Shown here: one piece after another, positions 27,407 to 38,102 of the stretch
Layout: each line of letters opens with the position of its first letter
How positions within the stretch are numbered: the first letter of the stretch is position 1
NCBI GenBank assembly: GCA_012965045.1
Contig: DTSZ01000001.1
Location: forward strand, 591,629-655,628
Length of the DNA stretch: 64,000 nt
Source of the DNA: Candidatus Saccharimonadota bacterium
GTDB lineage: Bacteria > Patescibacteriota > Saccharimonadia > Saccharimonadales > DTSZ01
Direction: 5' to 3'
The notes under the pieces: model-generated
What the model was told of the DNA's origin: nothing
What the model saw: only the letters and a program-made list of their open reading frames with translations
Databases searched by the model: none
Made by a program: the position numbers and the translations under genes

Positions 27407-27426
27407 GAAGTTAAAACTATAGGATA

Positions 27427-27608
27427 AGGGGTGTGGTGGGACTCGCCAAAAGTATTTTTCTGGTGAAAAATCTTTTCGATCGTACTCTAGCGCCGGCGCA
27501 CTCCGGTCTTGCGAGAAGCAGACATGCATTTCTCACCCAACTGGGTTCGAGTCATTAAAACTGTCCAATTTAAAACCCGCCAAAAGGCGGGCGTTAAATT
27601 GGAGGGAC
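27427..27608 (-). repeat. Copy B (degenerate, orphan) of the tRNA-linked structured repeat, including its terminator hairpin and a tggaggga tRNA-Lys end fragment.
   Basis: Shares gtgggactcgcc, TCTTGCGA..hairpin..TTTCTCACCC, TAAAACTGTCCAATTTAAAACCCGCC...GGCGGG and AAATTGGAGGG with copy C. No tRNA is adjacent. Confidence 0.6.
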
Positions 27609-27644
27609 GTATGTATCGTTATTGCAACTAAAATAAATCTGCAA

Positions 27645-28151
27645 CTACTCAACGTTAAAAGTTAGAATGTTCGATTCGAAACCTTGCCATTGGAGTTTTG
27701 CTTGATGTTCGCCCGGTGGCAATTTTAATTCGTCACTAAATCCGATGTAATCACTGCTTATATCGTGAGAAAAGTCATCTACCAGCGTAAAAGGGTATTC
27801 ATACGTGATGGTTTTGTTTGAGCCGATATTTATATCTGTAAGCGCATCACCACAGGCATAGTACAGACCAATTGGTTGTTCATTTATATAAAACGTACCC
27901 TCGGTACATGTGGAAGAAAACGTATATGTTTTTGCACTTGTTGTTGGGTTGTTAATGAATGACTTGAAGGTAATTGATTCACCTATTGAATAGATGCTTT
28001 TGTGTAATCCTAGTTGTATATTCAACTCCCCATTCGTAGGTTCAGATACATTCTCATGTTTGACAAGCTTAGTCATTACTAAAAATAAACCAACTCCAGC
28101 TACTATTGCAATCAATAAAGCAATGATAGTAATTTTAACTTTTTTACTCAT
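27645..28151 (-). CDS. Small N-terminally anchored secreted protein (168 aa) lying between repeat copies B and C.
   Basis: N-terminal TM (ITIIALLIAIVAGVGLFLVM). The beta-rich body has weak resemblance to BsuPI-type inhibitor folds, at low certainty. Confidence 0.6.
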   Translation of the reverse strand: MSKKVKITIIALLIAIVAGVGLFLVMTKLVKHENVSEPTNGELNIQLGLHKSIYSIGESITFKSFINNPTTSAKTYTFSSTCTEGTFYINEQPIGLYYACGDALTDINIGSNKTITYEYPFTLVDDFSHDISSDYIGFSDELKLPPGEHQAKLQWQGFESNILTFNVE

Positions 28152-28222
28152 GACTTAACTATAACAAAAATGCTACAACATTAGTTGCGGCATTCTCATT
28201 TGAGTTATGATTTTGACCATAT

Positions 28223-28252
28223 AAAAACACCTACGGCGAGATAGGTGTTTTT
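28223..28252. terminator. Bidirectional terminator hairpin.
   Basis: aaaaacaccta-cggcgaga-taggtgttttt. Confidence 0.65.
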
Positions 28253-28255
28253 ATA

Positions 28256-28441
28256 TGGAGGGTCCAGTGGGACTCGCCCACATTCTGCGGGCCCGAAACT
28301 ACGTCTTTCAAAACAAGTTTTGAAGAGTAAGTTTCCTTGCAAACTGCTCCCAGCAGTTTTCACCCCCGACACTACGTGTCGTGGCTTCGACCCAGTAAAA
28401 CTCTCCAATTTAAAAACCCGCCATTCGGCGGATTCATAAAT
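28256..28441 (-). ncRNA. Copy C of the tRNA-linked structured repeat. It starts behind the tRNA-Lys terminator and ends in an exact 21-nt copy of the tRNA-Lys 3' end (28256-28276).
   Basis: See copy A. Helix 28276-28292 again has an A-C mismatch on plus that becomes G-U on minus. Terminator hairpin ccgcc-attc-ggcgg at 28418-28431. Confidence 0.55.
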
Positions 28442-28518
28442 TGGAGGGTCCAGTGGGACTCGAACCCACGACACCCTGCTTAAAAGGCAGGTGCTCTAAC
28501 CAGCTGAGCTATGGACCC
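28442..28518 (-). tRNA. tRNA-Lys (anticodon TTT), CCA encoded.
   Basis: Hand fold: acceptor GGGTCCA/TGGACCC, anticodon loop CTTTTAA, T-arm GTGGG-TTCGAGT-CCCAC, 77 nt. Confidence 0.95.
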
Positions 28519-28602: not shown

Positions 28603-29118
28603 TTATTTTTTTGCTCTTGATCGACGACGACTCTTTCGTGCTCGTAGTAGTCCTGGGTTTGTTTGACTCATCACCTCAAAGAAGGCAACACCAAACGACA
28701 TAAGAGTCACTAAACCACTGAATCTATTAAGTTGGTTCGCAAAATAAGAGTTTCTAAACGGATCTTCAAAGCCGGCAAGTATAAACGTATTAGTGGTCGC
28801 CACAATCAACATAAACGCAAAGAAGGCCGATACAATTATGCGCTCCACTGGATTAAATCGACCCCCGCCACGAAAATGCCAGTATGCATAAAAGGTCGGC
28901 CCAAAAACTAACAGGCTATACACCAGCAACTTAGCATTGTCTGTCTCAAAGATAGATGCTTGAGAAGATAAAAAATTCAATAAATCTGGTCCAAAACTGA
29001 TACCGAGTAACATGCTGCTCAGCAACACCAGTAGAACTGTTTGGACCGATACGCGTTTTATTATTGAAACGCCTGTAAAAAATAAAACTACAAATAGTGA
29101 TAAAAAATCAGATGACAT
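28603..29118 (-). CDS. Integral membrane protein (171 aa) with a basic C-terminal tail.
   Basis: 4-5 predicted TM segments. No motif recognised. Confidence 0.55.
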   Translation of the reverse strand: MSSDFLSLFVVLFFTGVSIIKRVSVQTVLLVLLSSMLLGISFGPDLLNFLSSQASIFETDNAKLLVYSLLVFGPTFYAYWHFRGGGRFNPVERIIVSAFFAFMLIVATTNTFILAGFEDPFRNSYFANQLNRFSGLVTLMSFGVAFFEVMSQTNPGLLRARKSRRRSRAKK

Positions 29119-29140
29119 ATCTAAGCATCAGTATAAACGA

Positions 29141-30451
29141 TTATGCTTTTTTAGTTTTCACTGGAGTGACTTCGATTTTTACGGCCTGTTCAAGCCGGCG
29201 AATATCTGCCAGTAGATCCGATCGTGATTTATTGTGCAACGTAATGTTAAAGACGCTCTTGCCGCCGTTTTTAGCAAATTTACACATGTCACCCTTGGTT
29301 TTATTTATTTTTAAATTATAAAACGAGGTTAAAGCACGTGCTTTGTTCATTCCATTAATCTTTTCAAGTCGGCCCTCTTTGTTTGAGAAAAACTTCATGC
29401 TAGCTGTATAGCCTTGTCGTTTCTTTTTAATTATTGGCTTTCGACCAGTCCGAACCAAAAGGTCGTTATAGGCATGGTCAAATCCGTATGATAATTGATA
29501 CAGGTTCTGACGAAATCCACCCATCCGGCACGCTATTTCGACTATTTTAAAGCCCGTTAGTTCAGTCTTTATTACCTCAACATGAACTATTGTGTTGCGT
29601 AGTCCTAAAGCGTGAACGCCTTTTGCAGCCACCTGTTCCATGTCTTTAATTTTACGCGCCAGCAACTTAACTGGGGTCATTTGCTTGTAGCCAAAGAAAT
29701 CATCAAAACCAATCGCCCGGCCTGTCTTTATGTGTACCGGCGGCACAAAATCTACACGACCAGTATTATCAACGTAGCCATCTATTGAATACATAGTGCC
29801 TTCTAGAAACTGTTCGATTAGTACTTTTGGTTCACCACGCCCAGCATATGACTTATGTGCTGCCTTAACCTGTCGTAGGGTACGTTTTAAATTAGATACT
29901 AACTCTTCTTCGTGGTAGCAAATACTCACCAATACACTGGCGGCTAACCCGCTTGGCTTAATTACCAGCGGAAAACCAACTTTTCGTTTGATTTTTGAAA
30001 TAGTCTTGTCGCTAATGTCGGTAGCAATGGTATAAGCCGGTGTAATTTTTTTATCGTATTCGGTAAAACGTCGACGCATCAGTAATTTGTCGGTCGACCA
30101 GTTAATCGACGTTTCAGTCGGCGTTAATGTATATGGGACATGGGGTATAACCCGCTTAAAATTCTCCAACAAGTCCTCTGACCGACAAGTGATAGCAATT
30201 ACGCGGTGTAAGTATGGTAGAAGTGCTTCATGAATTTGTTTTGGTGATTTAAGATTTATTTCAATTTTTGTAAAATCTTTTTGAAAAACACTCTTATTAG
30301 CTTTTTGTGACTTATCAATAAGCCAAACACGTTGCAAAGGACGGCGGAGTTTTTTTTCAAGCTTATCAATGGCAATACTTAATGAATCACCCACATCTTT
30401 GCTGTCGGTGGCTAGTACAATGACGGTGTCTCTCGAAAATTGCTTCTCCAT
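29141..30451 (-). CDS. ATP-grasp domain ligase with an N-terminal extension.
   Basis: GFPLVIKPSGLAAS, LIEQFLEG..YSIDGYV and EIACRMGG are typical ATP-grasp blocks. Confidence 0.7.
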   Translation of the reverse strand: MEKQFSRDTVIVLATDSKDVGDSLSIAIDKLEKKLRRPLQRVWLIDKSQKANKSVFQKDFTKIEINLKSPKQIHEALLPYLHRVIAITCRSEDLLENFKRVIPHVPYTLTPTETSINWSTDKLLMRRRFTEYDKKITPAYTIATDISDKTISKIKRKVGFPLVIKPSGLAASVLVSICYHEEELVSNLKRTLRQVKAAHKSYAGRGEPKVLIEQFLEGTMYSIDGYVDNTGRVDFVPPVHIKTGRAIGFDDFFGYKQMTPVKLLARKIKDMEQVAAKGVHALGLRNTIVHVEVIKTELTGFKIVEIACRMGGFRQNLYQLSYGFDHAYNDLLVRTGRKPIIKKKRQGYTASMKFFSNKEGRLEKINGMNKARALTSFYNLKINKTKGDMCKFAKNGGKSVFNITLHNKSRSDLLADIRRLEQAVKIEVTPVKTKKA

Positions 30452-30633
30452 ATCTTGCTCAACATAGGCGTCTTTATCTGTTATGTCAAGTATTGTTTAT
30501 CCTAAAAACTGCAAAAAATCATCATATTTAATGCAATCATTTTTATATTCTGTAAAAGGTTATTTATTTTACAACGATTAACAGTTTAAAAAGCAGCTGA
30601 TTTTGTTACGCTTAAGGTAACTAAAGGTCAAAC

Positions 30634-32508
30634 ATGCGCTTACCAAAAAATGTAATATCACCACTTGGGTTGTCTCGTTACCAAGAACATGCCGCTCTGG
30701 TATATTCGTCAAAGCGCCGAGGCCACGGAAAATTAGGTCTAGCTCTCAGTGAAGACGGTCTTCATTTTAACGAGTCCGTTGATGCTCCGGTAATATTCAC
30801 CGGTCAAAACAAAACGGAATCAATTGCTGACACCAGCGACTACCGTTTTGCAAAAGTGGCTCACGACCACCTGCTTACCTACACCAAAAATGGCCGCTTA
30901 GTCATTGCACGAGAAGAAGAATCCGGCGACCTCTGGGACTTAGCAATCTGGAAAACACTACGAACAGGTAACCCACGTGCTACTAACGGCATGTTTGTGC
31001 CAGAGTATAAATACAACAATCAATACGTCTTGTTCTACAACACCAGCAGCATTAACTTTGCAGTCACAAAAGACTTTAAAGACTGGCACTCGCCATACCG
31101 CCCAGTTTTAGAGCCACGCCGACATAACTTTGATAACAAGTCTCTAAAAATAGTTTCAGTTGCAAACATTAGTAGTGGAATTGCTGTGTTGTACGAGTCG
31201 CAGTCAATGCGTAAGCGACAGCAAACTATTCATGTTGGGTTTGCTGTATTTTCGCGCCAAAACCCTGGTAAGTTAATCTGGCGCAGCGAAGGGCCGTTAT
31301 GGGCTGCCACAAACGCCGGTAGGTCAAAAATTGAACTCCTTGGTGCAGACATACAAAACGATTCTATTCGTTTATACGGTAGCTCTGTCTCCAACGGTCT
31401 ATTTACCGTCGACCTCCAACAACCGCTTAAGCTAGACGAAGTTAGCCGACCAAAATTCGAACTAGAGCGTCATCATAAAAACCCGTTGCTTAGCCCAGAA
31501 GGTGGCGAACACTGGGAGTCGTCAGGGGTATTTAACCCAAGCGTCGTCCACCACGAAGGCAAGGTGCATATTTTGTACCGTGCTGTTGACCCGTACGGCG
31601 TTAGTCATGTCGGTTATGCCAGCACAACCGACGGGTCAGAAATAGACTATCGGCACAACGAACCTTGCTACTGGCCACGCGCATGGTTTGAAGCTGGTAG
31701 AGGCAAACGGCCATATAAAGAATGGAATAAAGCCTTTGGTTCCGGCGGCGGCTGGGGCGGTTGCGAAGACCCTAAGGCAACACTTATGGATGACAAAGTC
31801 TACATGACCTATGTTGCCCACGACGGCAGCCCCTATTTGCGTTTATGTATAACATCAATTGATATAGATGATTTTGTAAATCATCGGTGGGATAAATGGG
31901 CATGGCCAAAAGTAATTAGTAACCCTCAATTTGGCCCACACGTTAATCCACCATTTGGAGTTCGTGTTATAAAAAGTGGAATAATCTTGCCAGAGAAAAT
32001 TAACGATAAATATGTGATTTTCTTCAAAGAACCGCCACATGTTGGCATTCATTATATTGACGATATCGAACGACTTGGTATTGATGAAGAGCTCGAAGCT
32101 CATGACTTCATATACACTCGCCCCGGTCATTGGGACAGTCAAAAACTCTCGATGGGATCGACTCCGATTTTAGTAAATGAAGGTTGGCTGGTTATATACC
32201 ACGCCGTCGATAAACGCGAAGGTCACAAATATAAAATTGGCGCTATGTTACTTGATAAGAACGATCCAAGTAAGGTATTGCGGCGCACCAATACCCCAAT
32301 TCTTGAACCTGATGCTGACTATGAAAACAACTGGAAACCTGGCGTTGCCTACCCATCTGGTGCGGCTATCATCGGTGATCAACTTCATGTGTATTACGGC
32401 GGTGGAGACCGACACGTCTGCGTTGCAACAACTCCCCTGCAAGAGTTCATGGACCATCTAATGAACGAAGAAGAAATTCACCTAACTGCAGAAGTCACGG
32501 TTAGTTAG
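30634..32508 (+). CDS. Two-module GH130-like glycoside phosphorylase/hydrolase. The N-terminal module is degenerate.
   Basis: GVFNPSVVHHEGKVHILYRAVD and GGCEDPKATLMDDKVYMTYVAHDG, the GH130/DUF377 signature. Confidence 0.75.
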   Translation: MRLPKNVISPLGLSRYQEHAALVYSSKRRGHGKLGLALSEDGLHFNESVDAPVIFTGQNKTESIADTSDYRFAKVAHDHLLTYTKNGRLVIAREEESGDLWDLAIWKTLRTGNPRATNGMFVPEYKYNNQYVLFYNTSSINFAVTKDFKDWHSPYRPVLEPRRHNFDNKSLKIVSVANISSGIAVLYESQSMRKRQQTIHVGFAVFSRQNPGKLIWRSEGPLWAATNAGRSKIELLGADIQNDSIRLYGSSVSNGLFTVDLQQPLKLDEVSRPKFELERHHKNPLLSPEGGEHWESSGVFNPSVVHHEGKVHILYRAVDPYGVSHVGYASTTDGSEIDYRHNEPCYWPRAWFEAGRGKRPYKEWNKAFGSGGGWGGCEDPKATLMDDKVYMTYVAHDGSPYLRLCITSIDIDDFVNHRWDKWAWPKVISNPQFGPHVNPPFGVRVIKSGIILPEKINDKYVIFFKEPPHVGIHYIDDIERLGIDEELEAHDFIYTRPGHWDSQKLSMGSTPILVNEGWLVIYHAVDKREGHKYKIGAMLLDKNDPSKVLRRTNTPILEPDADYENNWKPGVAYPSGAAIIGDQLHVYYGGGDRHVCVATTPLQEFMDHLMNEEEIHLTAEVTVS

Positions 32509-33721
32509 CCGGTTGTATTGTCTTCCATAGTTTTACTTGCAACCAATACGTTGCTAGTCCTCCAAAAGTTACAATCGCCCACACAGTACGCAAAAATAGC
32601 TCACTGTTGTCTAAGATATGAATAAGCCCAATAAAGAAGCCTAAGCCAACTAGTCGTGTAGAAAACTTAATCACCTCAAGAAGATAATTAAGTTGAAGTG
32701 TATTTCTTTGAACATCACTACCAAGCACAGCCTCGCGTAAGCTAATGTCTAAATCGTCATCTATGGGCTTCTCTATTGTCTGTGCGCCTTTTTCAATAAC
32801 AGCTCTGCCAATCAGGGCAGGCGCTTGCCAGGACGCCACTAAACCAAGTGTTGCTGCCACCCTAATTGAATGTAAGTAATACCCAAGCCGCAAGTTACCT
32901 TTTAGCTCCACATGGCGCCGTACATAGACAACTATCGCTGCAATTAAGGCAACTCCACTTACAAAAACACCGTAGCCAAAAATGCTACCTAGTATTAAAA
33001 ACGGAGCAATCTTCCAAAAATGACTTTGTAATTCATCCTGTAATGTATCAATGAAATAAATTCGCAAAAAGCGTTTCCATTCTGGGTGATTTTTTAGGCT
33101 ATTGAGGAAGGATTTTGATAAAAGCGGCGCTTTTGGTGGAATAGTATTGTTTTGATACGTCTTAAATAGACTCAGGAAGCTTAACAGGGCGGCAACAATC
33201 AAGAACGCTCGGTAGCCCACGACAAAATCCAGCAAAAACCCAATTATCAGTGGCAAAAATACACTCATGATTGTTTCGTAGCTTCCAGAAACTTGAAATA
33301 TATAGCTGCGCTGTTTGCTTTTCATTTCTTTTACAGCAACATAGTGTGAGCTTGTGTGATAAAAACCTGAGTCTATTCCTCGCATCACAGACAGCACCCA
33401 AAACCATGTAAACGGGTCTTGCTCAAGTAGTGGCCAGATTAAAATAGAAATAAATATAAGTACTGTTCGAAGATACCGCCCGTATACCCAAACGACACCA
33501 TAGCCTTTTTTGCGAAGTAGAACATTGGCAACAGTAATGCCTACCATGGTTGCACACGCTATAACTAATTTGTCTAAAAATACTAAAGTTAAAGAACCGC
33601 TCAAGACAAATAGAACAACACTGTAGAGTTCTCCCAAAATACCCCATATAAACAAGGCTGTCATTCTGTTATAAAAAAATTGCCGAACGACGTCGGCTTG
33701 AGACTTTAGCTCTAAAAACAT
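32501..33721 (-). CDS. Polytopic membrane protein, transporter-like (406 aa).
   Basis: Roughly 10-12 TM segments. Sits between the two GH130 genes. No specific motif. Confidence 0.6.
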   Translation of the reverse strand: MFLELKSQADVVRQFFYNRMTALFIWGILGELYSVVLFVLSGSLTLVFLDKLVIACATMVGITVANVLLRKKGYGVVWVYGRYLRTVLIFISILIWPLLEQDPFTWFWVLSVMRGIDSGFYHTSSHYVAVKEMKSKQRSYIFQVSGSYETIMSVFLPLIIGFLLDFVVGYRAFLIVAALLSFLSLFKTYQNNTIPPKAPLLSKSFLNSLKNHPEWKRFLRIYFIDTLQDELQSHFWKIAPFLILGSIFGYGVFVSGVALIAAIVVYVRRHVELKGNLRLGYYLHSIRVAATLGLVASWQAPALIGRAVIEKGAQTIEKPIDDDLDISLREAVLGSDVQRNTLQLNYLLEVIKFSTRLVGLGFFIGLIHILDNSELFLRTVWAIVTFGGLATYWLQVKLWKTIQPAN

Positions 33722-33764
33722 GACATTAGCATAGCAGCATCACATCATAGAAGCTGCTACAATA

Positions 33765-35687
33765 GTGTTTATGTTTACAGTAACCAGAAATAAAAAGAAT
33801 CCAATCATAAAAAGTAATAACGACGAGCCGTGGCGTGCGTTGGCAGCGTTTAACTGTTCGCCGGCTAAAGTAGGCGACTCGCTTCATTTAGTATTTCGGG
33901 CAATGACCGACGAAGCCCTGTACAAGGGTCACAACGTCGAGCTATCGACCATAGGACATGTAATGGTTGACCCTCAGACACACCATTCCATCGGAGAATA
34001 CAAAGTCCTTATACAGCCCGAAGAAGACTGGGAGATGTATGGCTGCGAAGACCCGCGGGTAACTAAAATTGATGACACATACTATATTTTCTACACCGCT
34101 CTGAGTGGTTTTCCATATTCGGCTGAAAATATTAAATGTGCCGTGGCGACCACCAAAGACTTTAAGACAATCGACAGCCGGCAACTGGTAACACCGTTTA
34201 ATGCTAAGGCCATGGCGCTTTTTCCAGAAAAAGTCGACGGTAAATGGACTGTTATTTTGACTGCAGATAGCGACAAGCCACCTTCTAAAATGGCTATAGC
34301 TCAAAGTGACAATTTTGATGATTTTTTAAATCATGACTGGTGGGCAAATTGGTATGAAGAAGTTGAACACCATAATATTGACCTGCGCCGCGTGGATACT
34401 GACCACTGCGAAGTTGGCGCACCTCCAATAAAAACTGATGCGGGCTGGCTCCTTATCTACAGCCACATCCAAGATTACTTTACCGACGACAAGGTTTTTG
34501 GAATCGAAGCTGTTTTATTAGACAAAGACAACCCACGAAAAATTATCGGCCGTACTCGCTACCCATTTATGGTGCCAGAAGAAAGCTACGAACAATATGG
34601 ACAACTGCCAGACATCGTTTTTCCAAGCGGAGCTATGTTGGATGGCGACATCCTAACAGTTTTTTATGGAGCTGCCGACACAACTTGCGCCTCTGCTAAA
34701 TTGCGGCTGTCACACCTGCTTGAATCTATGCAGATGGAAGGAAAAAGTTACGCGAAACGCTACAGTGGCAATCCGATTCTACTCGCTAAAGAAGAAAATT
34801 ACTGGGAAAGCAGCTATGTCCTAAATCCTTCAGCAATAGAAATTGACGGCGAAATAAATATTCTTTACCGAGCGCTTGGGCCTGACAACACATCTGTTTG
34901 CGGCCTAGCAATTACAAAAGATGGCTACACAATTGACGAGCGTCTTGATGAGCCAATCTACATACCGCGGGCTAAATTTGAGTCAAAGCTTAAACCACCA
35001 GACGGCATATCTGGCTGCGAAGACTTGCGGGCCCAAATTATCGGTGATCGAATTTTTGTAACCTACACAGGCTACAATGGCGTTGACCCTCCGGCTGTCG
35101 CAGCAAGTTCGATTTCTATTGAAGAATTTAAAAACCGCAAGTTTCAATCTTGGACCGAGCCTCACCTAATTAGTCCGGTTGGCATCGACGACAAAGATGC
35201 TGCAATTTTTAGTGAAAAAATAAACGATCAGTACCTTGTATTTCATAGAATTGACCACCATATATGCGCCGACACCCTACCAGAACTAGATTTTGAAAAG
35301 CATCAGCTTGACCGCTGTATCCAGGTTATGGGACCGCGTAAAGGCATGTGGGACAGTCTAAAAATTGGAATCAATGGTCCGCCGATAAAAACCGAAAAGG
35401 GTTGGTTGCAGTTCTACCACGGCATTAACGAGCATCACCACTACCTTATGGGGGCCGCGTTGCTAGATCTTAAAGATCCAACAAAAATCATTGGGCGATC
35501 TGCTATGCCAATAATGGAACCTGAAACCCAGTGGGAACTTGAAGGTTGGATAGACAATGTTATTTTTAGTTGCGGTCAAGTTGTTCGCGACGACACAATT
35601 TTTATTTATTATGGTGGCGCTGACACAGTTGTGGCTGTGGCAACATTAAGCTTGTCGGAGCTTTTGAGCCAACTCAACGAGGCTTAG
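33765..35687 (+). CDS. Tandem-GH130 protein with two complete modules.
   Basis: YGCEDPRVTKIDDTYYIFYTA and SGCEDLRAQIIGDRIFVTYTGYNG. Two FPSG/YYGGAD C-terminal blocks. Confidence 0.8.
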   Translation: MFMFTVTRNKKNPIIKSNNDEPWRALAAFNCSPAKVGDSLHLVFRAMTDEALYKGHNVELSTIGHVMVDPQTHHSIGEYKVLIQPEEDWEMYGCEDPRVTKIDDTYYIFYTALSGFPYSAENIKCAVATTKDFKTIDSRQLVTPFNAKAMALFPEKVDGKWTVILTADSDKPPSKMAIAQSDNFDDFLNHDWWANWYEEVEHHNIDLRRVDTDHCEVGAPPIKTDAGWLLIYSHIQDYFTDDKVFGIEAVLLDKDNPRKIIGRTRYPFMVPEESYEQYGQLPDIVFPSGAMLDGDILTVFYGAADTTCASAKLRLSHLLESMQMEGKSYAKRYSGNPILLAKEENYWESSYVLNPSAIEIDGEINILYRALGPDNTSVCGLAITKDGYTIDERLDEPIYIPRAKFESKLKPPDGISGCEDLRAQIIGDRIFVTYTGYNGVDPPAVAASSISIEEFKNRKFQSWTEPHLISPVGIDDKDAAIFSEKINDQYLVFHRIDHHICADTLPELDFEKHQLDRCIQVMGPRKGMWDSLKIGINGPPIKTEKGWLQFYHGINEHHHYLMGAALLDLKDPTKIIGRSAMPIMEPETQWELEGWIDNVIFSCGQVVRDDTIFIYYGGADTVVAVATLSLSELLSQLNEA

Positions 35688-35690
35688 ACC

Positions 35691-37046
35691 GTGCCACGGG
35701 CAAAGAAAAAACAACCAACATCGACGACCACTACGAAAACAATTGAACAAGCTAAAAAAGTCTTAGACATAAATTTTAAAGATGGCTACACTATGCCATC
35801 AAAAGTACTCTACCCGCACCAATGGTTATGGGATTCGTGTTTTCATGCAATTGGCCTACGGCACCACCGTCCAGATCGTGCACTGGAAGAAATCAAACTG
35901 TTACTACGGGGCCAATGGCCAAATGGTATGGTGCCGCATATGATTTTTAGTGGCGCCAAGCACGGACATCAACGCTACAATATTTGGAAGTCACATGTCT
36001 GTGACGACTGTGTTGTCGGCCTGAGGACCAGTGCAATCACGCAACCGCCTGTCATTGCTTGGGCGTTCGAAAAGGTAGTAAATAGCCTGCCCAAAAAAGA
36101 TCAAAAAGCAGCTATCGAAAAATACCTGCCGCAGATAATTCGCTATCATCAGTGGCTGTATGCAGACCGTGACCCTGACCAAACAGGTCGCATTGTAATT
36201 ATTCACCCGTGGGAAAGTGGCCTCGACAACAACCCAGCACTAATGGCAGCACTGCGTGAATGTTTCCCTGTGAATACCAGTGAAAAAATATTTTTGACCA
36301 ACCCTTTTGTACGCGGTGTATACCACAAGCTTCGTAAAGACATTCAAGTCACGAGCGCTGCCGAGCGAAGTCGAACTGTTGAAAACTGGATGTTTGCACG
36401 ACTTATTGCCCGGTATCGTCGCAAGCTCTATAAAACCGAAGCCATCTTATATGATAAAAATAGCTTCGTTGTTGAGGATGTTAGCTTTAACGCAATATTT
36501 ATTCGGTCTAATGCCGCTATAAAAACTCTGGCGAAAAAAATAAAACTCACACTGCCAGACGACTTAACTCAAGCAATGGACCGTAGCGACGCAGCGTTTG
36601 CTGATTTCTGGAACGACGACAAACAAGCATATTTATCGCGCAACTGGCACACCAAACAATCAATTCCAATTGAAACGATCGAAGAATTACTGCCACTCAT
36701 AACTTCTATTATCCCCAAATCAAATGCTAAAAAAATTGTCACAAAACTTGAATCAAATAACTTTTTCACACCTAAGCCGGTATCCACAAACAACACAGCG
36801 CGCGACGACTACGACCCTATTCGTTATTGGCAAGGCCCAGTATGGGTAAATATGAACTGGATGATTATCGAAGGACTAAAGAACTACGGCTATACCAAAA
36901 AAGCTAAAGACCTCGCCAATTCAACAATTAAATTAGTCGAAGAAAATGGCATATGGGAGTACTACAATTCGCAGACTGGCATGGGCCACGGAATCAGCAG
37001 TTTTTCCTGGACCGCAGCTTTGTATTTAGACTTAATTAATTCCTAA
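35691..37046 (+). CDS. GH63-like (alpha/alpha)6 glycoside hydrolase of the mannosylglycerate/glucosylglycerate hydrolase type.
   Basis: LYPHQWLWDSCFHAIGL, IIHPWESGLDNNP and YWQGPVWVNMNWMIIEGL. GTG start. Confidence 0.7.
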   Translation: MPRAKKKQPTSTTTTKTIEQAKKVLDINFKDGYTMPSKVLYPHQWLWDSCFHAIGLRHHRPDRALEEIKLLLRGQWPNGMVPHMIFSGAKHGHQRYNIWKSHVCDDCVVGLRTSAITQPPVIAWAFEKVVNSLPKKDQKAAIEKYLPQIIRYHQWLYADRDPDQTGRIVIIHPWESGLDNNPALMAALRECFPVNTSEKIFLTNPFVRGVYHKLRKDIQVTSAAERSRTVENWMFARLIARYRRKLYKTEAILYDKNSFVVEDVSFNAIFIRSNAAIKTLAKKIKLTLPDDLTQAMDRSDAAFADFWNDDKQAYLSRNWHTKQSIPIETIEELLPLITSIIPKSNAKKIVTKLESNNFFTPKPVSTNNTARDDYDPIRYWQGPVWVNMNWMIIEGLKNYGYTKKAKDLANSTIKLVEENGIWEYYNSQTGMGHGISSFSWTAALYLDLINS

Positions 37047-37379
37047 CTCAACTTCTTCCGCTCTAAATTCTACAAGTTCTCGGATGCGATCATCAACATA
37101 CTGACTTCTTTCAAGAAAGTTCATTCCGCCTAAAATTTGGTCACGTTCACTGACATCGCCAGTCAACCCAGCAGCAATGTCGTCCCTAATTGCAGATTCT
37201 CTACAAGCCTTGCGCACTAATACTGGGCAAGTGTCGCATATAGCCTTTGCTATTTCTTCCCTGCTTCGACGTGCATTTATGCCTTCAGGTCTCAAATCGT
37301 CAGGAGGAAAAAATAAGTCACCCTCTCCGACACATGGTTTTGCTGTTAATGACATCTTTTTATCTAAATCTACAAACAC
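37032..37379 (-). CDS. WhiB-like (Wbl) Fe-S transcription factor candidate with a C-terminal extension.
   Basis: KPCVGEGDLFFP ... AKAICDTCPVLVRKAC gives four Cys, the FFP motif and a CxxC-PV pattern. AAGGAG RBS 7 nt before GTG 37379. Confidence 0.55.
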   Translation of the reverse strand: MFVDLDKKMSLTAKPCVGEGDLFFPPDDLRPEGINARRSREEIAKAICDTCPVLVRKACRESAIRDDIAAGLTGDVSERDQILGGMNFLERSQYVDDRIRELVEFRAEEVELGIN

Positions 37380-37475
37380 TGCCTTGCTCCTTTTATATAA
37401 AAACTACTCTTTGCTTTTGTAATCTGTCAAGTTCGTTGTTTATTTAAGTGGCACGAAAATGGACATAGTAGTGTT

Positions 37476-38102
37476 CTATGTATCGTTTATCAACAAGTTA
37501 ATCTGACTACTGTCTGCTGGCATATCCCATCTACTCCACTCATCACGGTATCTCTGAAACTCTTCGTCGGGAACCTTATGTAAATGTTTTGGATTAAAGA
37601 CTCGTTGGAACCAACGGATTCCATTCAAGTGATCGACTTCATGCTGTACGATCCGTGCAACAAATCCACTGAATTTATTTATGACAACTTCACCGTATTC
37701 ATTGTGCCAACGAACCTCTACCGCCTCAGAACGTTTAACAACACCGCCATAGCCTGGTAACGAAAAACACCCTTCTCGATCTTCTGCTTGATTGCTACTA
37801 GCCCAAGTTATTACAGGATTTATCATAAAAATATTATTTGGCGTCGGATTAACAGCTTTTGGGTCTGCATCAATATCAACTAAAATCACCCGAGCGTTCC
37901 AACCAATTTGCGGGGCAGCCAGTCCGACCATAGTTTTTGTGCCGGGTGTTGGGTCTTGTATAACTCCAGCAATTTTTTGCATTTGCAGGAGCGCATTTTT
38001 AAATGCAATCGACTTATAATCAATGATCTCTGCAGTTACTTTTTTCAATAGGGGATTGCTTGGTTCTAAGATACTAAATTTATCTTTTTCCCCATCTTCC
38101 AT
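37476..38102 (-). CDS. def: Peptide deformylase.
   Basis: GLAAPQIG, EGCFSLPG and HEVDHLNG. Confidence 0.92.
   Translation of the reverse strand: MEDGEKDKFSILEPSNPLLKKVTAEIIDYKSIAFKNALLQMQKIAGVIQDPTPGTKTMVGLAAPQIGWNARVILVDIDADPKAVNPTPNNIFMINPVITWASSNQAEDREGCFSLPGYGGVVKRSEAVEVRWHNEYGEVVINKFSGFVARIVQHEVDHLNGIRWFQRVFNPKHLHKVPDEEFQRYRDEWSRWDMPADSSQINLLINDT

Follow-up and report, generated by a model that had tools for sequence, protein, structure and literature searches.

What are two proteins with paired glycoside hydrolase family 130 (GH130) modules doing in a genome of Candidatus Saccharimonadota, and do the genes around them serve the same purpose? Bacteria of the Candidate Phyla Radiation (CPR, or Patescibacteria) encode hardly any carbohydrate-active enzymes, and little is understood of how they manage carbon. 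The locus lies in a stretch of 64,000 nucleotides (nt) of contig DTSZ01000001.1 (assembly GCA_012965045.1, positions 591,629 to 655,628), referred to here as the window. A preliminary description of its sequence had grouped five genes into a single glycan-processing island: an ATP-grasp ligase, two GH130 proteins of 624 and 640 amino acids (aa; GH130A and GH130B), a membrane protein between them and a GH63-like hydrolase, which together might harvest mannosides or compatible solutes from a host. All five open reading frames (ORFs) were recovered exactly as delimited there (Table 1). The unit of interest, however, is a CPR-wide GH130A-GH130B system and not the five-gene island. The core of the region is probably a two-gene, cytoplasmic system, found across Patescibacteria/CPR, that interconverts β-1,2-mannosides and α-mannose-1-phosphate, the other three genes being local.

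Relatives of GH130B are encoded in at least 596 species genomes. They were found in a genome collection scanned at one genome per species; a query with the single 640-aa protein confirmed no locus, and an alignment-based query succeeded. The best 80 of these loci, together with 2 fetched by look-up, make up the 82 related loci analyzed below. Neighboring genes were clustered over 84 loci, L083 and L084 being the two closest relatives (GH130B 74-75% identical). Nearly all of the best 80 loci belong to Patescibacteria/CPR, including Saccharibacteria, Paceibacterota/Parcubacteria and Moranii-, Zambryski-, Nomura-, Magasanik- and Levyibacteria. A GH130A relative ends less than 200 nt upstream of GH130B on the same strand in 79 of the 82 loci, with a median gap of 38 nt. 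Fusion proteins also occur (P0033, P0047, P0099 and P0106; P0152, P0161 and P0169), in which either the C-terminal module of GH130A (A-C) is joined to both the N- and C-terminal modules of GH130B (B-N and B-C; 971-1110 aa), or an A-C-like module is joined to a B-C-like one (697 aa). Because these fusions join modules of both proteins, they argue that the A and B products work together. A recent tandem duplication was considered as the origin of the pair and rejected, as A-C, B-N and B-C each form a class that is conserved in its own right throughout CPR. The pair was also observed on several independent metagenome-assembled genomes (MAGs) labeled Omnitrophota and on one labeled Planctomycetia (L012, L027, L029 and L036; P0139, P0141, P0144, P0150 and P0151), through either genuine transfer into other ultra-small lineages or mis-binning. 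Our literature search, which had incomplete coverage, returned no description of the conserved pair, of the gene linkage described next or of differentiated modules; of the two papers in which GH130 appears together with a CPR term, one mentions in passing that a Microgenomates genome encodes “two GH130” enzymes, both lacking signal peptides, and the other makes no connection between the terms.

The neighbors that recur beside the pair are two enzymes of mannose phosphate metabolism. A mannose-6-phosphate isomerase (PMI), a cupin of about 116 aa (PF01050, 63 bits), is found in 44 of the 84 loci, and so is a phosphomannomutase (PMM) of the eukaryotic HAD-IIB type of about 250 aa (PF03332, 64 bits). 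Both occur in 35 loci and either one in 53, directly upstream of GH130A or downstream of GH130B. This context ties the pair to mannose-1-phosphate independently of any residue analysis. Together with the nearest solved structures, Teth514_1788/1789 from Thermoanaerobacter X-514 (PDB 9FJ8 and 7FIP), it bears out the link to β-mannoside phosphorolysis that had been suggested at the outset. In addition, a 165-aa gene resembling a cytidylyl-/adenylyltransferase (PF01467, similar to rfaE domain II) lies near the pair in 10 of the 84 loci (e.g., L078, 6980-7477) and may encode a sugar-1-phosphate nucleotidyltransferase.

Which reactions the pair may catalyze was approached through the function-defining residues of the family, scored over the 82 related loci and 42 close homologs. 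The residue criteria were taken from Li et al. 2020 (Table 2; PMC7660257), from the Teth514_1788 and Uhgb_MS structures (PMC12814180) and from Cuskin et al. 2015 (PMC4599007). According to Li et al., phosphorylases combine a proton-donor Asp without a second carboxylate base, a phosphate-binding Arg/His pair (R168/H231 in UhgbMP) and the lack of a signal peptide; Glu beside the catalytic Asp marks β-1,2 or β-1,3 specificity and Tyr β-1,4 specificity, with Lys versus Arg at the +1 subsite as a further distinction (PMC7660257). That each protein holds two GH130-type modules is confirmed by Pfam for B-N, B-C and A-C (PF04041; curated cutoff 26 bits) and by profile alignment and orthologs for the N-terminal module of GH130A (A-N). 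Scanned separately, the halves of GH130B score 150 (B-N) and 153 bits (B-C), and its two intact (G)CED(P/L)R signatures are present as described (Table 1). The Glu before the catalytic Asp and the Lys at the +1 subsite are invariant in B-N, B-C and A-C, which is the pattern of β-1,2-specific GH130 enzymes. A hydropathy scan (SignalP was not used) found no N-terminal hydrophobic segment in GH130A, GH130B or the GH63 protein, and for this reason GH130A and GH130B are read as cytoplasmic. The four modules are not equivalent: only B-C has a canonical phosphate site.

In B-C, the residues R369, E419, D420, K477 and D620 are invariant or nearly so (82/82 sequences). At the phosphate positions, H494, R495 and H552 occur in all 82 sequences, with Lys (75 sequences) or Arg (7 sequences) at position 533. 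The proton-donor Asp is present without a second carboxylate base, and R495 and H552 form the Arg/His phosphate pair. A phmmer comparison with 9FJ8 gives E = 2.6e-55. In sequence, B-C thus carries the complete signature of a cytoplasmic β-1,2-mannoside phosphorylase.

B-N presents another state of the same site. Seven residues (N30, R45, E95, D96, K148, Y232 and D305) are invariant in the 82 sequences. At the former phosphate positions, the residue census and an hhalign alignment against B-C place Thr or Ser at 166 (never Arg), Glu at 216 (82/82) and Ser at 233 (75/82). All three basic phosphate ligands are gone, and E216 aligns, by profile, with the phosphate Lys/Arg position. With D170, found in 81 of 82 sequences in a loop adjacent to the phosphate site, E216 contributes two extra carboxylates. 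B-N is therefore predicted to be unable to use phosphate in the canonical way while still binding the same sugars. We prefer, with somewhat less than even confidence, a β-1,2-mannosidase-like activity for B-N, because the exchange of a basic residue for Glu is in keeping with what distinguishes hydrolases from phosphorylases within GH130 (PMC4599007).

In its AlphaFold2 model (pLDDT 94.2, pTM 0.91, the predicted local and global confidence measures), GH130B is a rigid two-propeller body. A Foldseek search with this model returned 9FJ8 as the top match (template modeling score, TM-score, of 0.90 on the target) and no solved chain that spans both propellers. Such a rigid body could also be expected if B-N, A-N and the Arg-less A-C forms of other lineages were noncatalytic pseudo-subunits that shape or regulate the sole true site in B-C, taking the place of a homo-oligomer partner. 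Teth514_1788 and Uhgb_MS are indeed dimeric, with loop L2 at the interface between two active sites (PMC12814180), and A-N clearly lacks catalytic residues. Nevertheless, the seven invariant subsite residues of B-N and its conserved D170 and E216 carboxylates form the pattern expected of a working site, and the scaffold-only reading is possible but unlikely.

GH130A differs from its partner in both halves. Residues 1-271 of the protein in this genome, scanned alone, have no Pfam match; orthologous A-N halves from other genomes match PF04041 at 32-74 bits. An hhalign comparison of A-N with the GH130 modules (B-C) extends over 248 columns (probability 99.3%, E = 3e-20), without conservation at the Glu-Asp positions. 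AlphaFold2 folds A-N as an all-β domain (pLDDT about 90). In the model of whole GH130A, the confidence is lower (pLDDT 87, pTM 0.57) and the linker is of low confidence. GH130A exists in a long form (about 600-650 aa) and a short form (365-425 aa) without A-N, the latter in 35 loci. By these comparisons, A-N is a GH130-derived propeller that is catalytically dead and dispensable in many lineages. Glu-Asp is lost in A-N and kept in B-N, B-C and A-C.

In A-C, R316, E378, D379, K447 and D592 are invariant among relatives, and the invariant proton-donor Asp again stands without a second carboxylate base. The phosphate site in this genome consists of K465, K504 and H523, with Phe464 in place of His; at the position of K465, 31 of 42 close relatives have Arg. 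Two co-varying subtypes of A-C can be distinguished. One carries a basic pair (R/K, K) and includes this genome, and the other combines a small residue (S/G/A/N) with a hydrophobic one (V/L/M/I/T) and includes every short form of GH130A. A-C of the window would therefore be a phosphorylase-like variant with a second phosphorylase-type site, and by analogy with Teth514_1788/1789 it probably differs from B-C in chain-length or acceptor preference. The combination of K465, K504 and H523 with Phe464 is common only to this genome and its nearest relative, P0122. These two are also the only ones with Phe-Lys at residues 464-465 (32023-32028), other phosphorylase-type A-C modules having His-Arg. Both have EDPK at the catalytic motif; about a third of the close GH130A relatives have EDPR.

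Taken together, these features are probably explained by the following scheme. B-C would cleave β-1,2-manno-oligosaccharides in a phosphate-dependent manner, with Asp420 as the acid, Glu419 and Lys477 setting the β-1,2 linkage and Arg495, Lys533 and His552 binding phosphate. A-C would offer a second phosphorylase-type site (Lys465, Lys504 and His523) for another chain length or acceptor. B-N, rigidly packed on B-C, would act as a β-1,2-mannosidase-like or otherwise phosphate-independent module, and A-N would be a dead propeller. GH130A and GH130B would thus degrade, or in reverse build, β-1,2-manno-oligosaccharides via mannose-1-phosphate, which operon-encoded PMM and PMI would convert to fructose-6-phosphate in most other CPR genomes. 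In the sub-clade of this genome, GH63 would have been appended behind GH130B and, in this genome alone, the membrane protein gene would have split GH130A from GH130B, with the ATP-grasp gene being unrelated.

Several points weigh against this scheme. Within the 64-kb window, neither a PMM nor a PMI of the linked type is encoded. The NCBIfam equivalog for β-1,2-mannobiose phosphorylase (NF052550) gives scores of 402 for GH130B and 221 for GH130A, with a cutoff of 450. The placement of Glu216 in B-N rests on the profile alignment, and phmmer shifts that loop by two residues. Finally, in family GT108 the active-site residues by themselves do not tell whether an enzyme is a phosphorylase or a transferase (PMC10913872).

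The reverse direction of the scheme leads to another reading, in which the pair builds and consumes an intracellular β-1,2-mannan reserve, like the mannogen of Leishmania, through a cycle of fructose-6-phosphate, mannose-6-phosphate, mannose-1-phosphate and mannan. Modules without the phosphate Arg would then serve synthesis or priming and B-C mobilization. Several observations fit such a cycle: no transporter is conserved near the pair in the 84 loci, the reversible PMI and PMM stand in the operon, no guanosine diphosphate (GDP)-mannose pyrophosphorylase cluster was seen, and the pair is kept in CPR lineages from unrelated habitats. Moreover, GH130_6 enzymes make β-1,2-oligomannan from mannose-1-phosphate and can also use GDP-mannose (PMC4264767, PMC12814180), and GT108 paralogs have specialized into synthases and phosphorylases (PMC10913872). 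On the other hand, reports of such a polymer are not known for any CPR bacterium, phosphate in cells normally favors phosphorolysis, the Arg-less modules seem to have no recognizable features for binding nucleotides, and the pair has no linked PMM or PMI gene in this genome. A storage role is accordingly possible but unlikely. Unlikely too is its most far-reaching version, in which a GH130 complex of three or four propellers would act with PMI and PMM as a self-contained set, independent of nucleotide sugars and common to ultra-small bacteria (Patescibacteria and the Omnitrophota-labeled MAGs), that makes and mobilizes an intracellular β-1,2-mannan reserve, with phosphorylase, hydrolase-like and dead propellers fixed in one heteromeric machine.

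Alternatively, phosphorolysis may supply mannose-1-phosphate for GDP-mannose and surface mannosylation rather than for energy, so that envelope glycans are salvaged, as proposed for Thermoanaerobacter. There, the adjacent GH130_6 genes lie in a GDP-mannose cluster (PMC4264767), and the cytidylyl-/adenylyltransferase-like gene near the pair in a minority of loci would suit such a role. However, the conserved neighbors of the pair do not include a cluster for mannose-1-phosphate guanylyltransferase or mannosyltransferase, and the linked PMI points toward or away from fructose-6-phosphate, so that we regard salvage for the envelope as improbable.

Our preferred reading, interconversion by the two-gene system, leaves the other three genes of the supposed island to be explained. 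Relatives of the membrane protein and of GH63 occur in none of the 82 related loci, and relatives of the ATP-grasp gene in two, which does not support one island. Harvest from a host is likewise unsupported, because no transporter is conserved with the pair in the 84 loci; moreover, the CPR lineages that carry the pair inhabit many kinds of environment. Actinobacterial mannans and mannosylglycerate, which had been named as possible sources, are α-linked and hence not GH130 substrates, and only GH63 could act on mannosyl- or glucosylglycerate.

The membrane protein had been described as having 10-12 transmembrane segments and as being flanked by the GH130 genes. Its position holds, and its relatives assign it to the major facilitator superfamily (MFS); fewer segments were resolved in a crude hydropathy scan. 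On its own, the protein reaches 21.5 bits against MFS_1 (PF07690), below the cutoff of 33.4. A word-indexed search matched only the protein itself; a full HMMER search gave 81 distant full-length relatives (20-27% identity), and 29 of 30 aligned relatives match MFS_1 (best E = 1e-17). Judged from these relatives, it is a real but very divergent MFS protein. Its gene runs antisense to the pair, its 3' end overlapping the end of GH130A by 8 nt and its start lying 43 nt from the start of GH130B. An MFS relative between GH130A and GH130B is absent from all 84 related loci, which makes this an insertion unique to this genome, and the distant relatives sit in unrelated gene contexts. No signs of a mobile element were seen at the insertion: direct repeats do not flank it, the inverted repeats are short and at chance level, and the composition shows no clear break.

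The GH63 gene starts 3 nt past the GH130B stop codon. As previously suggested, its product is of the mannosylglycerate/glucosylglycerate hydrolase (MgH/GgH) type: besides the MGH1-like_GH match (PF22422, Table 1), GH63 itself scores 49 bits, and the protein aligns with Tt8MgH (2z07) at E = 2e-65 and with MhGgH at about 1e-45. The equivalents of the catalytic Asp182 and Glu419 are kept, the catalytic motifs being matched by HPWESGLDNNP and WEYY, and of 11 listed residues that contact the substrate in MgH/GgH, 9 are conserved. The glycerate-side Tyr88 and Tyr222 are replaced by His and Asn, the rest of the Tyr36, Trp40, Arg216 and Tyr375 set being conserved. The protein also scores below the glucosylglycerate hydrolase equivalog NF047898 (246 versus a cutoff of 550). 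Since both glycerate-side Tyr residues are replaced and this cutoff is missed, the substrate is uncertain. In L083 and L084, GH130A, GH130B and GH63 are contiguous on one strand with no gene between GH130A and GH130B, so that GH63 appears as a third operon gene specific to this sub-clade. It is probably co-transcribed with GH130B and would release another hexose. Elsewhere in metagenomes, GH63 relatives at about 40% identity are numerous (at least 511), and none of the 80 GH63-relative loci (L085-L164) lies near GH130, PMM or PMI. Recurrent neighbors in these loci, some on contigs of 0.4-0.8 Mb, resemble by eye rmuC, pheS, pheT, yajQ, a ZIP transporter and Fur. These neighborhoods were tried as a clue to the substrate and discarded, as they hold only housekeeping-like ORFs (by eye).

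A five-gene island importing host mannosides or compatible solutes through the membrane protein, to be degraded by GH130 and GH63 enzymes, could draw on the MFS identity at family level, on the catalytic Asp/Glu and most substrate residues retained in GH63 and on the A-B-GH63 operon in three related genomes. Yet the MFS gene occupies this site in this genome alone, lies antisense and has homologs in unrelated contexts; GH63 relatives elsewhere stand beside rmuC- and pheST-like ORFs (by eye) rather than GH130; and the ATP-grasp gene is not co-conserved with the pair. In addition, β-1,2-mannosides are not known from the envelopes of Actinobacteria as hosts. Import from a host by such an island is therefore improbable.

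The ATP-grasp ligase gene is divergent from GH130A, as had been noted, at a distance of 182 nt. Its product matches ATP-grasp_4 (PF13535, Table 1) and scores 27.8 against LAL_C2 (cutoff 29.4); the best PDB match, BacD (E = 1e-6), indicates a weak likeness to L-amino-acid ligases. The gene lies near the pair in 2 of the 82 loci and in L083. It was considered as part of the system and rejected, as it co-occurs only via local gene order in close relatives and has a membrane-ORF partner on its own strand. This ORF, conserved in size (about 165-171 aa) and position, comes directly after the ATP-grasp gene in each case (28603-29118, minus strand, in the window; 2613-3125 in L001; 6114-6608 in L083), and the two probably form a two-gene unit of their own.

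Table 1. Genes, modules and motifs of the GH130 locus, numbered from the first nucleotide of the window.
Feature	Position	Strand	Remarks
ATP-grasp ligase (L-amino-acid-ligase-like)	29141-30451	-	436 aa; PF13535 73 bits; neighbor, outside the A-B system
GH130A	30634-32508	+	624 aa; PF04041 164 bits; first gene of the conserved A-B pair, two propellers
A-N module, aa 1-268	30634-31437	+	degenerate GH130-derived propeller; catalytic Glu-Asp lost
A-C module, aa 272-624	31447-32505	+	PF04041 141 bits; β-1,2-type GH130, variant phosphate site F464, K465, K504, H523
GCEDPK motif of A-C	31759-31776	+	from translation and residue census; Glu378 marks β-1,2/1,3 specificity, Asp379 predicted proton donor
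Divergent MFS-type membrane protein	32501-33721	-	406 aa; antisense between A and B
GH130B	33765-35687	+	640 aa; PF04041 298 bits; second gene of the pair, rigid two-propeller protein (model)
B-N module, aa 1-326	33765-34742	+	acid Asp and sugar subsites retained; altered phosphate site (T166, E216, S233, plus D170)
GCEDPR motif of B-N	34041-34058	+	from translation
B-C module, aa 327-640	34743-35684	+	predicted canonical GH130_6-like β-1,2-mannoside phosphorylase module
GCEDLR motif of B-C	35013-35030	+	from translation
GH63 / MGH1-like α-glycoside hydrolase	35691-37046	+	451 aa; PF22422 289 bits; third operon gene in this sub-clade only

Proteins of the locus are 100% identical to the hypothetical proteins EYO12_03195, EYO12_03200 and EYO12_03205 of Candidatus Saccharibacteria bacterium; GH130B is annotated there with 638 aa, presumably from the ATG at 33771. 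A promoter and terminator scan of positions 29000-37600 was uninformative, with 19 promoter-like sites versus 17.8 expected. Downstream of the operon, a WhiB-like ORF (37032-37379, minus strand; PF02467, 38 bits) shares 15 nt with the 3' end of GH63 and is absent at this position in L083 and L084 and from all 82 related loci. WhiB proteins are characteristic of actinobacterial phages and of Actinobacteria themselves, on which Saccharibacteria usually live. On the other side of the locus, the 3' 21 nt of a tRNA-Lys(ttt) gene (28442-28518, minus strand) are repeated exactly 186 nt downstream at 28256-28276. About 50 nt following the tRNA (28382-28431, with a hairpin) recur 840 nt away at 27542-27590 with 82-84% identity. 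The repeats bracket a membrane-anchored ORF of 168 aa (27645-28151), and the pattern as a whole (27425-28518) resembles the scar of an att-type site or a small insertion next to the tRNA gene.

The presence of the GH130 pair in hundreds of species genomes, often with PMI and PMM, points to turnover of β-1,2-mannosides and mannose-1-phosphate as an undescribed core trait of CPR. GH130A and GH130B would be natural fusions in which one fold adopts three active-site states, namely a phosphorylase, a phosphate site rewired to Glu and a dead form, and as such a ready system for studying how GH130 switches among phosphorolysis, hydrolysis and transfer. For annotation, this means that the 624-aa and 640-aa proteins should not be taken as simple duplicated phosphorylases, and that the GH63, MFS and ATP-grasp genes should not be placed in one pathway with the pair.

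Among known systems, Teth514_1788/1789 are the best matches in sequence and fold and have the catalytic, phosphate-binding and β-1,2 residues in common with B-C. Like GH130A and GH130B, they are encoded by two adjacent, co-oriented GH130 genes without signal peptides. However, the Teth514 enzymes have one module each (about 300 aa), assemble into homodimers and belong to an ABC-transporter/GDP-mannose cluster, whereas GH130A and GH130B comprise two differentiated propellers each and have PMI and PMM as partners. B-N resembles the GH130_3 β-1,2-mannosidases BT3780 and BACOVA_03624 in the loss of the basic phosphate ligands, the carboxylate in their place and the retained Asp, Glu, Lys and Asp of the -1 and +1 subsites (PMC4599007). 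Only one carboxylate of B-N is placed by alignment, as a candidate counterpart of E227 or E268 of BT3780. B-N is nevertheless nearer to the GH130_6 phosphorylases (E = 1.6e-35) than to GH130_3 (about 1e-13). Unlike GH130_3, many members of which have a signal peptide, it is fused to a predicted phosphorylase and, lacking an N-terminal hydrophobic segment, is probably cytoplasmic.

A more distant parallel is provided by the Leishmania GT108 proteins MTP1-7, which have the five-bladed fold in common with GH130B (Foldseek E about 1e-9) and act on β-1,2-mannan via mannose-1-phosphate or GDP-mannose. Their paralogs have diverged at the phosphate site, as the modules have here. They differ in belonging to another CAZy family (about 15% identity), in being separate, single-domain eukaryotic proteins and in having a demonstrated reserve polymer. 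For the GH63 protein, the counterparts are Tt8MgH (TTHA0978) and MhGgH, from which it departs at the Tyr88 and Tyr222 equivalents while keeping the catalytic pair and most contacts. The tandem architecture of GH130A and GH130B, finally, is the same as that of the bimodular GH130-GH130 entries in CAZy, four uncharacterized sequences whose modules are both reported to fall in one node of the similarity network (PMC7660257). In contrast to these entries, the architecture described here is widespread in CPR, is paired with a second gene and combines modules that differ in their function-defining residues.

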